From the NCBI GenBank assembly GCA_051294375.1, contig CM119264.1:19537590-19601589 (forward strand): a stretch of DNA of 64,000 bases, in the 5' to 3' direction. The notes beneath the pieces were generated by a model, which had not been told where the DNA came from, made no database searches, and worked only from the letters and a program-made list of their open reading frames with translations. The position numbers and the translations under genes are program-made. Numbering within the stretch: position 1 is the first letter of the stretch; the number at the start of each line of letters is the position of its first letter. This stretch comes from Paraspadella gotoi. Lineage: Eukaryota > Animalia > Chaetognatha. This document shows, piece by piece, positions 18,501 to 60,500 of this stretch.

Positions 18501-21500
18501 AAACTTATTATAGCCGAATAACGATTATGTGTTATAAGCTTTTTTTTTACCATCGGTTTATACGCTTCCTTCGTTCCATCCACGATTAGAATGACTCTGG
18601 GACTGTCTCATGCGTCGCTCGCAACAAAGGTGGTGAAGCACGCTTCTCCGTCCAACTCACAGTGCTCGAACGGGAGACGATCGTTCGACCGAGATTCGTC
18701 GATCGCCTACCAGCGAGCCTCACCGTGCAGGAGGGTAGGGAGATAGTTCTCAACGCTACGGCCGGTAAGTTCAATCAGTCCCTCCGTCCGTCGCTTTGTC
18801 CGTCCATTCGTCCATCAACTGCTTTTATTTTTGGCCCTGTAACTGTCAGTGGCCCCTAGCAAGTACTCATTCACAAAACCTCCCCCTACAGACGGCGTTC
18901 CGCCTCCCATGTTGACGTGGCAAAAGGACGGCGTTGTAGTAACGGACGGCCCAGGGTGTCGCATTTCCACAAACGGAGTGCAGACGCAACTCACCATCGA
19001 CGTGGCCACCGGTAACGATTCCGGTTGGTATCAGTGCAGCGCCGTCAACGTGGGCGGTACTGCGTCTACCAGGGGGAAGGTGCTTGTCGAAGGTGAGTTA
19101 GTGGGTACTTGTTCAATAGACTTGATGTTTATTTTCCGCGTGACAGCCACTAGCGTCAGCAACGACGACTAAAACGATAACGTCGTCAGCATTGAGATGA
19201 AGTGCCTTTGCACAAAGACGAAAACTAATATAGTATTCAGTACACATAGTTTTGCAAGATTAATTGTAGAAACTGATACTGATGCTTTTTTTTTTAAAGC
19301 TTATCCCGGCCAACCCGCTCAGCGTGTAACGCTGACTGGAAGACAAGTTGAGAAGCGGGAAGATGATGAAGACAAAACGTAAGTACTTGTCAATATTTGT
19401 GATTAAAATCCGTAACAAAATTTTTAGAATAAAAAGGTAGATCTTAAAATTAAATTAAAATTATCTTATTTTCTATTATTTTTATTTTCAAAAAGCTTTG
19501 TTTCTATAATTAAAAAGCATTAATGTTTTTTTAAAAATAACAAGTTAATTTTTTTATAATCAATAAGCTTAATTTTTTTTTATGTTTGGGGCGAGGGGTA
19601 TTTCGTAGCGAATCCACTTTTACTAGAAGATGGTTAATAACCCCATTGGTTATGCCTTCTCGAACTGTTAGAAGCGAAATGTTTAAATTTGGAAAAACAA
19701 TTTTTTAATAAAGAAATGTTTTAAAGATTACCATCGTTTTTCTTTGACCTATTAAAAATTAATTCTATACATACTTTTAATTCTCGGGCATATTATTTTG
19801 AAACCAACGAGATCACTTTTATTCTTAGCAATATGGCGTTCTCCAAAGATAGAATGCGGGAGATTGAACTTCTCGAAAGAAGGTCATCTCAAAAAGCCGC
19901 TCAACTCTTTGATGCGGAAAGGTCTCTTATTTTTTTTCATATACTAAAACGATTTTATGATATTATAAACAATGTTTCTGTGGACAAAACAAGCGTCGTT
20001 CAGATTTCACAGCTTCACTTTGATAAAAACTACCGCTTTCTAAAAAAGTATTGTTGAAATATACTAATTACGAAGGAACTAACGAAAATAAATATAATAA
20101 TTAGTAAAAGCCAATTGCGCATGGTTTGATCAATTGCTTTTGCAGTATTATTCCTGCTACATTTGTTTATGTCATTGGCAGTTTTCATGTAATATTTTTT
20201 CGCTGAACGAAATTTATCCGTAAAACTTTTTATTTTTTGTAAAAAAATAAACCACCTGTCGTTTTCGTACCCGCACGCCTCCCAACAATCATTTTTGTGA
20301 GCCCACTTTTTGTTTATTTTTTATGCTAAATCCGCTGACACATTATTTTGCTTAAAATTTTTAAATATCTTCAATATTCTTACCCCTTTTAAATACTCAT
20401 AACGATATATACTATGTATATATGTGTATTTATATATTCCGAATTTGTTCGCCTTCTTCTTTCCTTGTCACCTATCCTCAACCATTCCTCAACCGCCCCC
20501 GCATTCCCTTTTTTCCTTACTTCACACCAACAACCCCCCTTCTACCGTCCGCACGTTATTCGGCCCGCACGACAATCCTCTTTCCCCACCCATCCCAATA
20601 AAATCCTCCAGCGGTGAGTTTTCGACGGAGCGTATGAAAGCCCTGGCCGCCCTCGAGACGCGTCACGAGAAGCGCATGCGCGCACACGAGAAACAGCGCG
20701 CGCAAGCCGGCGCCAAGTCAGCGAATATGTCGCGGGAGCGCGTCAAGGCCATCGAGGCTTTGGAAACGAAGAAACGTGTTATCGAGGATGCCACCACCGT
20801 CGTTCCAACTTTCCTTGATGAGAAGAGAATGAAGGCAATCGAGGATTTCGAGAAAAAACATGCCGAGGCTCAGCGAGAAGAGTACGTGTGTTGAGAGAGA
20901 TTGTGTGTTGTCGTTGTTCGTGTCGTTATTGTAATTATCTCGCCTGACGGGGCAAAGCCCGTCTTGGCGATATAAAGCGAAATTCAGGCTTCTTTGTGAT
21001 GTCGTCGTCGTTGGCGTCGTCAGCATCACGCTTTTTTGCAATCATGGCTATTGAAAGTGAGATATCATAGGGAGTTGAAATTTTATATATGGCTTCTAAT
21101 CATCAAGATCTTTAAACTTGTCAAGTTGTCATGTTTCATATCAATATTCGTATTTGTTTATGTTTTATTTACAAAACAAAAATGTTTTAATTATATGTCG
21201 CTTTCTCTCTTTCTTATAATTATATGTCGCTCTCTCTCCCTCTTTCTTATAATTATATGTCGCTCTCTCTCCCTCTCTCTATTTTTCTCCGTCACTGCTT
21301 CTTCTGATTTGTCTAAAAACGAGTTCCGGCTCTGCAGCGGCGGTCCAGCGGCTGTCCAGCTTCTCTCTATCTTTCTCTCTCTCTCTCTCTCTCTGATTAT
21401 TTTTTTTCCTTCTAAAAACTTTTATTTTCGCCATTTATTCCGCTCTTTTTTCTCAAAACAAAATACATGAGAAATGGCCTATTAAAAAAAAAATGAAAGA

Positions 21501-57500: not shown

Positions 57501-60500
57501 TTTATTAAAGGACGAACATTTTTCGGCTCAAATTCGAGCCTTCATCAGCGCCAAATTGTTTTGTGAATAATTCACAATTTTTTTCATTTAAAGGAGGAGA
57601 GAGAGAGAGAAAGGGAAAAGTTTTTAACACAGAGTTTAGAAAGGACAGTGATCAGTGGTGATAATAGGCCAAGGGTAAGGACAGACTGAATTTAGTTTTG
57701 AAAAGAAGTGAAATGGTCAATTGGGAAGAGAGAGAGAGACAGGGAGAGAGAAAAGAATACATTTCTTAATGTACAACAGTTAAAAAGATTTTTGTATACT
57801 GAAATTTTTAACATTGACAATTAAATATTAATAAATAATTGAAGAAAAAGAAAAAATAGAAAATGAAAGAGATACAATTGGTGAGGGATAGTAAAGTAAT
57901 TAGTAAAGTGAAAGGTTAAGAATTAAGAAAGAGCTCAAAATGAGCAGGCGTATCCGGCCAAAGAGACATTCGAATAGCACTGGGAATATTCCCTCAAGGA
58001 AGCCTACTCAATCCAGCACTAACATGCTCGGTCGAACTGTCTTCTCAACCAATGACCCGGCCTTATCGTCCAAGCCTCTCATTTGCAAAAGCCAAGGGGG
58101 GCCAGCTCATTTTGAGCTCTTTCTTAATTCTTAACCTTTTGTATCTCTTTCATTTTCTTTTTTCTTTTCTTTTTCTTCAATTATTTATTAATAGTTAATG
58201 TTAAAAATTTCCAGTATATACAAAAATCTTTTTAAGAAATGTATTATTTTCTCTCTCCCTGTCTCTCTCTCTCTCTTCCAATTGACCATTTCACTTCTTT
58301 TCAAAACTAAATTCAATCTGTCTTTACCCTTGGGCTTTTCTCACCACTGATCACCGTCCTTTCTAAACTCTGTGTTGGAAACTTTTCCCTCTCTCTCTCT
58401 CCTCCTTTCAATGAAAAAAATTGTGAATAATTCACAAAACATTTTGGCGCTGATGAAGGCTCGAATTTGAGCCGAAACATGTTCGTCCTTTAATAATATA
58501 TGCGATTTTATTCAAATACAACGAGGTTGATTCAGTACAATCATCATCAACAAACAAACAAACAAAGACATAAAATAGAGAGAAAAAAAACAGTTAATTA
58601 ATAAAATTGTTGTTACAAATAATTAAACTGTCTATAATGTAATATTATTATAAATATAATAATAGTATTATAATATTAATATTAATATGATATTCAGTAA
58701 TTATTCAAGTAAAAGATAACTACTACCTCAAATTTTTTTTATTTTTCAGAATTATAACTGAAACTCAACTGCCGGAGGGTCATGAGACAGTGAAAAAAAT
58801 AGTTGATATGGAAGAATGGATGGAAGCACAGAGAAAAGCACAGTTTGAATTTGAAGAAACAGAAGAACCTGGAATACCTCTTTTTCCGGTTCCCTTATCT
58901 CCTGTCACGATCCCAGAAATGGATTGTGCTAAATTTATTTGCAAAGTGAAGGCGTTTCCTGCTGCAAAAGTCCATTGGTTTATAAATGGAAAAATGGTTG
59001 TCAATTCGGCACGATATCGCATCACATATGATGGCATGATGCATCAGCTAGAAATTCCACAGGTGATCAATCTTAACTTAAGTGATATAAATAATATTTT
59101 TTACATTGGAATTTTAATCATTAGCTTATAAACAATTTTCTTTTCTTTAATGAATCTTTCGGGATGGCTCGATTCTTATAATTGTTATTGTTTTAAACAT
59201 TACAATAACTTTATTTTATTTTATTAAATTAATTCAGGCTAAGACTTGGGATGAAGGAGAAATTAAAATTGTTGCAAAAAACAAGCTTGGTGTTGGAGTT
59301 TCAAAAACAACTTTAACATTGGTTGAAAGAGATGATTACAGGTTTGCTGAAATTTTTTGAAATATAATAATTGTTCCCAATTCTTATTCAAATTTTTATT
59401 ATATAACAGAAAGCTTCTTAAACGAAATGTTGAATGCGATACACACCTGTACTATTCACGACATGGAAAATATACTGCTGAAAATGAAGAGCTAGAAAAA
59501 GCTTATCTCGAAAAGCAAAGAAAGGCATTTACAATCAAGCAACATGAAGGTAAACTACAAAAAAAAAGCCATGTTAAGTTTAAGATTATAGTTAAAATGA
59601 ATAAAATAAATTAATGTCAAGCAAAAGTTTTAAGTTTAAAATCAAACTTCTAATTCTACTAATTTTTGTATAATGTTTTCACTACTTATGATGTGCAAAA
59701 GTAAATTAATTATGTTTTTGAAACTTACTGAAGGAAGCGGTTGCTGAACACCGCGTTGTTAAGAAGGCGAGCGCATACTGAATCCAATTATTAATGTTAT
59801 TTCGATGGTAACAAAATTATTTTTTGATTCATAAATTTTAGATAAAACTATTCATCGAGTTAATCGACAACTTGGAGAGCAAGTTGAATTACGCCATGTT
59901 GGTGTTGCACCAAAACTAAAGTTACATCATGATGAGGATTGTAAGACTTTATTTTCAAAAATTTGGCTTTTGGACTGTTTTACATAATAACATAAAATGC
60001 AAAAATATCATAATTTCTTTTGAAATATGAAGTTAAATATGTTTTATATTTAATTTTAAGTAGTAATCTGATATCTTTGCATGATTAGGTTTGCAGTTAC
60101 TAATTTTTTTTTCTATTAAGTTAAAACCCTTGAGCCCAAATTTGCAATACCTGAACTGCAACATATTTCCCGTATAGAATTGCATAAAAATGAAACCAGC
60201 CAAAAAGATGCTATTGCTAAAACACCATATCAAAAACGAGCTCCTGCAATGGTTAAAGGTGGACTACCTAATTTAAAAGAAAAGGGAAAATCTGCGCCTC
60301 CAGCTATGAAACCAGATTGTAAGGCATATTTTTGAAATAGTTATAAAACATTTGCCTGAATTAATCCAGCATCAACAGAGCTTAAACTGACTGCAACAAT
60401 TTTTAAAAGATCTGTAATCAATAACTGTCACGAGACAACAATTTTTTTTAATTCATAATGAATTTATTATACAAAAAATAAAAAAGAAAAGGTCAGGTGA

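Follow-up and report, generated by a model that had tools for sequence, protein, structure and literature searches.

A splice-variable array of symmetric cassette exons in a titin/kettin linker of the chaetognath Paraspadella gotoi

Tandem arrays in muscle proteins are the closest described systems to the locus analyzed here. In arthropods and nematodes, the kettin/Sallimus core is built of many ~135-residue tandem modules, each an immunoglobulin (Ig) domain plus a spacer. Since 2000, spacer motif II (IQXLE) has had the status of a putative actin site and no more, binding having been shown with the Ig attached: a kettin Ig flanked by its linkers binds actin and alpha-actinin, and actin is not bound by the isolated Ig (PMC3207145). 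Nebulin Z-repeats are 31 residues long, occur in 5 to 18 copies according to species, are spliced by fibre type, and have been proposed to set Z-disc width (PMC7754682); the Z-repeats of titin are a second analogue, being differentially expressed modules (PMC2799012). Symmetric exons make up 85% of titin and 97% of nebulin (PMC9222585), and, of 118 human cases of consecutive similar exons, 108 show the same phase (PMC3632108). Here we describe a run of same-phase exons in a titin-family gene of Paraspadella gotoi, contained in a 64,000-nucleotide stretch of contig CM119264.1 (assembly GCA_051294375.1, positions 19,537,590 to 19,601,589 of the forward strand; hereafter the window). We read it, with a probability of about 0.6, as a cassette array in a titin/kettin linker whose ~31-residue predicted helices act as putative Ig-free actin-binding repeats, their number being set in each transcript.

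Rebuilding the exon model of the window from splice sites and a repeat profile yielded an uninterrupted run of 20 phase-2 introns with 19 symmetric exons (phase 2-2) between them, in which 16 cassette exons (R1-R15 and X; 607 codons) are followed by three Ig exons (K1-K3); exons E0 and K4 bound the run (Table 1). An earlier note, made from the sequence alone, had counted 18 such exons, from 19829 to 57389, and 19 introns. All 18 are indeed phase 2-2 with lengths divisible by 3, the kettin-type Ig exons included, and all have AG acceptors and GT donors except for one GC donor (42827). The count was short by exon X, which was located from splice joints in a public sequencing run (X1, described below) together with the reading frame, and the start of R11 had been misplaced: the acceptor at 49627 is poor (score -2.9), and alignment to a protein of a relative (P0002) moves the start upstream without altering the phase. 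A scan for more 2-2 exons gave 22 candidates, 16 of which overlap known exons while the remainder are unconvincing; the scan also missed some known exons.

With every exon included, together with E0 and K4, the open reading frame extends over 859 codons with zero stops. The 19 exon ends (AG ten times, AA four times, GG twice, and AC, GA and CG) create no stop in any of 190 end/start combinations, in agreement with the earlier note. This stop-free property is ordinary and expected by chance. Exon ends in TA or TG number 3 of 36 elsewhere in the gene, which gives a probability of 0.18 of finding none in 20, and stop-free split codons arise as a by-product of the splice-site consensus. Outside the run our gene model has 17 phase-0, 16 phase-1 and three phase-2 introns (n=36), and the predominance of phases 0 and 1 that had been remarked upon is therefore real. 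Were they independent draws at p=0.22, which they are not, 20 phase-2 introns would have a probability of ~1e-13. A mild excess, chosen post hoc, remains in the three phase-2 introns that surround the Ig exons (p ~0.01 at 0.22, or 6e-4 with the frequency of 3/36 in this gene).

The phase-2 run is the expected footprint of duplication and not a separate design feature. Arrays of symmetric exons that splicing can skip are already usual in titin and nebulin (PMC9222585), so the run of phases is explained. The present array resembles them in being a same-phase exon run from internal duplication and differs in its class, 2-2, phase 2 being the rarest (21% of human introns). By themselves, E0 and K1 encode a spacer of 55 residues. 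Orthologous spacers measure 54-60 residues in eight of nine proteins and 71 in one, with 54-57 in vertebrate and hemichordate titin, and K1 can be aligned to the last part of the spacer in bird and Saccoglossus. These comparisons suggest that the array probably occupies what was one phase-2 intron of a titin/kettin linker. A single ancestral intron would account for 17 of the 20 phases, because an exon kept in a phase-2 intron must itself be 2-2 to hold the frame. The motif isoleucine is exon residue 6 in R3-R8, R10-R12, R14 and R15 and residue 7 in R13, and this fixed position argues that the exons are copies of one exon. Unit number differs between the window and the relative. Growth of the array by exon duplication inside one intron, a route to which the earlier note had pointed, is in our judgment highly probable.

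Proteins of a relative reveal how the exons are used. A search with K4 found four proteins at 93-94% identity among 27 candidates, and their clusters added seven; seven of these 11 reach the array, with flanks 93-100% identical to each other, and the other four stop short. The seven follow six exon-precise paths whose breaks coincide with window exon borders: E0-R1-R2-K1 (P0001 and P0006), E0-R2 (P0005, a partial protein from a nucleotide contig), E0-R3-R4-R7-R8-X-K1 (P0011), E0-R3-R4-R7-R8-Y-K1 (P0009), R1-R3-R4-R5-R6-R7-R8-Y-K1 (P0003) and E0-R3-R4-R7-R8-R10-R11-R12-(R13-like)-R14-R15-(extra unit)-X-K1 (P0002). A more distant relative shows E0-R3-R4-R5 (P0169). Complete proteins carry 2 to 12 cassettes, and the spacer ranges from 179 to 489 residues across these paths. 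The window codons predict the split residue correctly at the R4-R7, R8-X and R2-K1 skips; at several adjacent-exon junctions the residue differs from the prediction, as divergence would give. Exon use is block-wise, several cassettes going together. R2 and the R3 block do not occur together in the seven informative proteins, R5 and R6 move together in four, and X and Y are likewise not found together (two proteins and two). The Ig exons K1-K3 are constantly included in the transcripts seen, and K1-K4 are complete in all six spanning proteins. R2-R8 and X have the same order in both species, with unit identities of 52-77% for R2-R8 and 38-67% for R9-R15. The Y block comprises 160 residues between R8 and K1 in P0003 and P0009 and begins with a unit-like helix; no copy of it, or of the extra P0002 unit, was detected in the window. 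R2 alone, used as a query, found no homologue among 571 candidates.

For P. gotoi itself, X1 is the single public run that matches the stretch. Its RNA status is a guess, yet spliced GT-AG joints are present, and it is possibly the window's own source; its contig depths cannot rank exons, and contigs drop rare variants. Joints were mapped on 42400-60400, that is, from R7 onward, and 15 of the 30 were listed. They connect R7 to R8 (depth 36.6), confirming the GC donor, R8 to X (45273 to 53380, depth 20.5), skipping the seven exons R9-R15, and X to K1 (depth 20.5). The R8-X junction is common to both species, and the R7-R8-X path is well supported in both. An unbranched 923-nucleotide contig (depth 85.7) contains joints that run from K1 by way of K4 into the exon at 59410, and its length and offsets fit a span from K1 to the end of that exon; its beginning at K1 suggests several upstream partners. 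A second alternative region follows the ZIg10 orthologue and consists of phase 1-1 exons at 59842-59940, 60121-60318 and 61052-61153. X1 joins 59549 to the first or the second (depths 49 and 28.3), relatives hold a counterpart of either one or the other (three proteins and three), and the third is optional.

The locus thus combines same-phase exons with in-frame skipping in transcripts, as an alternatively spliced symmetric cassette array does, and the variation of repeat number by exon skipping anticipated in the earlier note is evident in X1 and in the six paths of the relative. Two of its expectations fared less well. Its "every exon subset" gives way in practice to the blocks described above, and skipping of Ig exons finds no place in the spanning proteins or the unbranched contig. 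In Dscam-type arrays, duplicated same-phase exons are mutually exclusive and exactly one enters each transcript. The likeness to the present locus lies in duplicated same-phase alternative exons, some blocks of which are not seen together; the difference is that R7 is joined to R8 in X1 and that as many as 12 cassettes stand in one protein (P0002). Because several exons are included at once, a Dscam-type choice is excluded, and tandem inclusion or skipping, which the note had preferred, holds. The long intronic repeats look like dispersed elements, although no search was aimed at docking or selector sequences.

These patterns also bear on mostly neutral exon turnover, by which a tolerant linker would gather symmetric duplicates and seldom include them. 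The sole joint seen skips R9-R15, which are the more diverged set, R10 and R11 carry in-frame deletions, splice sites of the array are weaker (acceptor score 3.8 versus 6.2), and the species differ in unit number and in the Y block. Neutral turnover may apply to R9-R15 alone. As an account of the whole array it is very improbable, given that 16 of 16 cassette exons are stop-free, that R2-R8 and X keep a common order, and that both species use the R7-R8-X path.

The position of the array in the gene is well defined. I-set Igs of the gene are orthologous to Igs of the titin Z-disc/I-band junction, which makes it a member of the titin/Sallimus/kettin family, and the two Igs before the array, as well as the kettin-type Ig, spacer and Ig after it, are the same elements found in titin and Sls orthologues. 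The array lies directly before the orthologue of titin ZIg9. The names ZIg9 and ZIg10 derive from titin cloning primers (PMC5657976); translated by hand from the primer sequences given there, these read DKEKQQK and EIQQRED, and both peptides occur in the titins examined, bounding these two Igs exactly in vertebrate proteins. In a tree of the upstream Ig pair, the relative falls outside chordates on a long branch. Between the same flanks, kettin-type Igs number one each in bird, bat, bichir, lamprey and Saccoglossus, none in Macrostomum and 8 in a mite, and three nematode proteins have 19-22 at the array site. The window has one only, with no further Ig exons between 19.3 and 55 kb, and five proteins that extend from IgB to IgK likewise show none. 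Given one module in deuterostomes and zero in Macrostomum, the single-module state is likely ancestral, and the proposal that this animal lost 25 kettin modules was rejected.

Relative to the kettin/Sallimus core (PMC3207145), the array occupies the same position between orthologous flanking Igs, has tandem repeats with a putatively IQXLE-like motif, and is followed by one true kettin-type Ig and spacer. It is not itself such a core: whereas kettin multiplies ~135-residue Ig-plus-spacer modules, the units here are ~31 residues long, lack both Ig and motif I, mostly correspond to one exon each, and are variably included. Vertebrate and hemichordate titins share with the window the orthologous Igs, the single kettin-type Ig and the 54-57-residue spacer that E0 and K1 match, and in bird titin the following spacer bears the same motif (LQRIEELE). 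They differ in that the cassette array is absent from the bird, bat, bichir, lamprey and Saccoglossus proteins examined.

The cassettes encode 19 units of ~31 residues, 18 of which have an intact core. In these 18 the motif Glu is invariant, Ile is present in 14, Leu in 15, and a basic residue at +6 in 15. A structure model of R7 places one helix in each unit (predicted local distance difference test score, pLDDT, 82.5; predicted template modelling score, pTM, 0.52; four sequences); a single-sequence model of P0011 is poor (pLDDT 42) and also has one helix per unit, which we take as a hint only. Pfam contains no family that matches the units, and the ESM Atlas gave no usable match. For comparison with kettin, 107 fragments gave 207 spacers, 57 after reduction, of which 50 were anchored on the motif. 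Kettin spacers share with the units hydrophobic residues at -3, 0 and +3 and Glu at +4. The pooled resemblance has z ~7.7 against free shuffles (sum 16.2, null -94.8, standard deviation 14.5) and 5.7 with I, L and E fixed, and of the 20 top matches of the array profile in the 107 fragments, 18 coincide in register with spacer motif II. With a cut-off of 8 bits the profile has one match, P0169, a relative, among the best 150 representatives drawn from 8871 hits, and none from another lineage. The resemblance to motif II is thus significant when pooled, weak per unit, and overlaps a generic amphipathic pattern; on sequence comparison, the units probably descend from kettin motif II or function like it.

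A number of points weigh against this assignment and against actin binding. Kettin binding was demonstrated with an Ig flanked by linkers (PMC3207145). Kettin spacers reach no more than 5 bits against the array profile, shuffle p exceeds 0.05 for 7 of 15 exons taken singly, non-core positions sum negative (-129), and anchoring on the motif favours the kettin match. Kettin motif I (IXXXQH[P/E]) is absent from the units by inspection, a similar motif, IITETQLPEG, occurring in the K4 spacer. A profile search of the PDB returned generic coiled coils only (best E 0.022), and many units run on as heptads, hydrophobic at +7 and +10, unlike kettin spacers. As to transcripts, we take the catalogue behind most of the relative proteins to have been assembled at the protein level, so whole paths may be chimeric and single junctions are safer than long-range paths; none of the 15 listed X1 joints (of 30) involves R9-R15; and RNA evidence from this species bears on the mapped interval, with E0-R6 outside it.

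Several of these points are what the main rival would predict, namely that the cassettes serve as an adjustable spacer or spring of generic helical or coiled-coil character, its length set much as in the elastic segments that titin splices differentially, and that their kettin likeness reflects convergence on a common amphipathic pattern. Coiled-coil matches, heptad continuation, one modelled helix per unit and weak per-unit scores all suit a spacer, as does the occupation of the same slot by non-repeat cassettes X and Y. We nevertheless consider a spacer unlikely, because the invariant Glu and the basic +6 residue suggest a binding surface, as do orthologue-specific conservation and a site in common with the kettin expansion, and because the best kettin matches cluster on motif II. 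Binding of the units to a different Z-disc protein, for instance alpha-actinin, by which they would fix how many cross-link layers form in the manner of titin Z-repeats, is distinctly improbable. Kettin Ig-plus-linker fragments do bind alpha-actinin as well (PMC3207145), titin Z-repeats are differentially expressed, and the units are modelled as amphipathic helices; but titin Z-repeats, as described, have 45 residues and adjoin the N-terminal Z1/Z2 Igs rather than preceding ZIg9 (PMC2799012), and none appears among the PDB or Pfam matches.

Returning to putative actin-binding repeats, the array is best read as a counterpart of the kettin core that evolved independently, lacks Igs, is tuned by splicing and may work like nebulin Z-repeats. 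It resembles the latter in having 31-residue repeats whose number varies by species and splicing (PMC7754682); there is no sequence relation, the units having no SSVLYK motif and no nebulin match in Pfam or PDB, and the comparison is one of analogy only. According to the mechanism we propose, exons would have been duplicated inside one ancestral phase-2 intron of the linker, each unit would copy the kettin spacer motif and bind the thin filament near the Z-disc, and the number of units per transcript would produce isoforms whose anchors differ in length or strength from one muscle type to another, in line with the proposal made for nebulin Z-repeats. To putative actin binding with tuning by muscle type we give roughly even odds. 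More tentatively, this lineage may have multiplied only the putative actin-binding motif where ecdysozoans multiplied Ig-plus-spacer modules, giving a kettin without Igs, with 31-residue one-exon units convergent on nebulin Z-repeats and chosen in blocks so as to adjust Z-disc anchoring for each muscle type.

Table 1. Exons of the array and its flanks (positions in the window; lengths in nucleotides)
Feature	Positions	Strand	Length, phase	Remarks
IgA + IgB	17431..19092	+		I-set Ig domains before the array; four exons; match the Ig pair preceding ZIg9 (titin) and the kettin core (ecdysozoans)
E0	19300..19378	+	phase 1-2	first half of the ancestral ~55-residue spacer
R1	19829..19921	+	93, 2-2	one unit; optional in relative (E0-R1-R2, E0-R2, R1-R3, E0-R3)
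R2	20612..20881	+	270, 2-2	three units; direct join to K1 in 2 proteins; never seen beside R3-R8
R3	22847..22942	+	96, 2-2
R4	28302..28382	+	81, 2-2
R5	32568..32660	+	93, 2-2	skipped along with R6 in P0002, P0009, P0011
R6	38646..38738	+	93, 2-2
R7	42639..42827	+	189, 2-2	two units; GC donor; two helices predicted
R8	45181..45273	+	93, 2-2	spliced to X in run X1, R9-R15 skipped
R9 (predicted)	48176..48265	+	90, 2-2	weaker in-frame acceptor 48170 would put motif in register; no counterpart found in relatives
R10	48340..48420	+	81, 2-2	in-frame erosion: 4 residues fewer than in P0002
R11 (corrected)	49555..49719	+	165, 2-2	two units; in-frame erosion: unit 1 (49555-49626) is 8 residues shorter than in P0002, the LE core being among those lost
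R12	49789..49878	+	90, 2-2
R13	49963..50058	+	96, 2-2	positional counterpart in P0002 weak
R14	50220..50318	+	99, 2-2
R15	50542..50634	+	93, 2-2
X	53380..53478	+	99, 2-2	cassette without repeat unit; 44% identity with relative's X
K1	54429..54515	+	87, 2-2	second half of ancestral spacer + start of kettin-type Ig; in every transcript seen
K2	55141..55278	+	138, 2-2	first half of kettin-type Ig (titin ZIg9 orthologue); in every transcript seen
K3	57249..57389	+	141, 2-2	second half of kettin-type Ig; in every transcript seen
K4	58750..59062	+	phase 2-0	canonical kettin-type spacer + start of ZIg10 orthologue; end of run

Other features of the window were observed in passing. Two of ~56 introns are GC-AG (17623/17624 and 42827/42828), the second confirmed by its X1 joint. 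Within this one gene, third-position GC content falls from ~0.4-0.75 (window 1-21000) to ~0.1-0.45 (22000-64000), with introns lengthening alongside, and phase-2 introns outside the array number 1 of 27 in the first part and 5 of ~12 in the second. Among intronic repeats, a tandem repeat of ~323 nucleotides (99% identical) at 30625-31456 has dispersed copies near 48.9, 49.2 and 52.3 kb, and the K3-K4 intron contains a 380-nucleotide inverted repeat (88%; 57502-57877 and 58139-58496) that is probably a foldback element. A U6 snRNA-like copy in an intron at 3483-3594 scores 43.4 bits (E 1e-9), where the gathering score is 44, and is likely a pseudogene. A gap of 10 N bases lies in an upstream intron (3093-3102); the array itself is free of gaps.

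The literature searched, which took in few papers on invertebrate connectins, held no report of an Ig-free motif array at the titin/kettin spacer. As a natural Ig-free array of the motif, the locus makes the putative actin site of kettin directly testable, and if the array is a kettin without Igs, actin binding by kettin and by the ZIg9-10 spacer of titin would reside in the motif alone. The array also shows that one titin spacer underwent two independent expansions, as against the one-module state of deuterostomes, and provides an invertebrate parallel to the splice-tuned Z-repeats of nebulin. If the putative binding holds, exon skipping would be likely to tune the share of the protein that holds on to actin close to the Z-disc.

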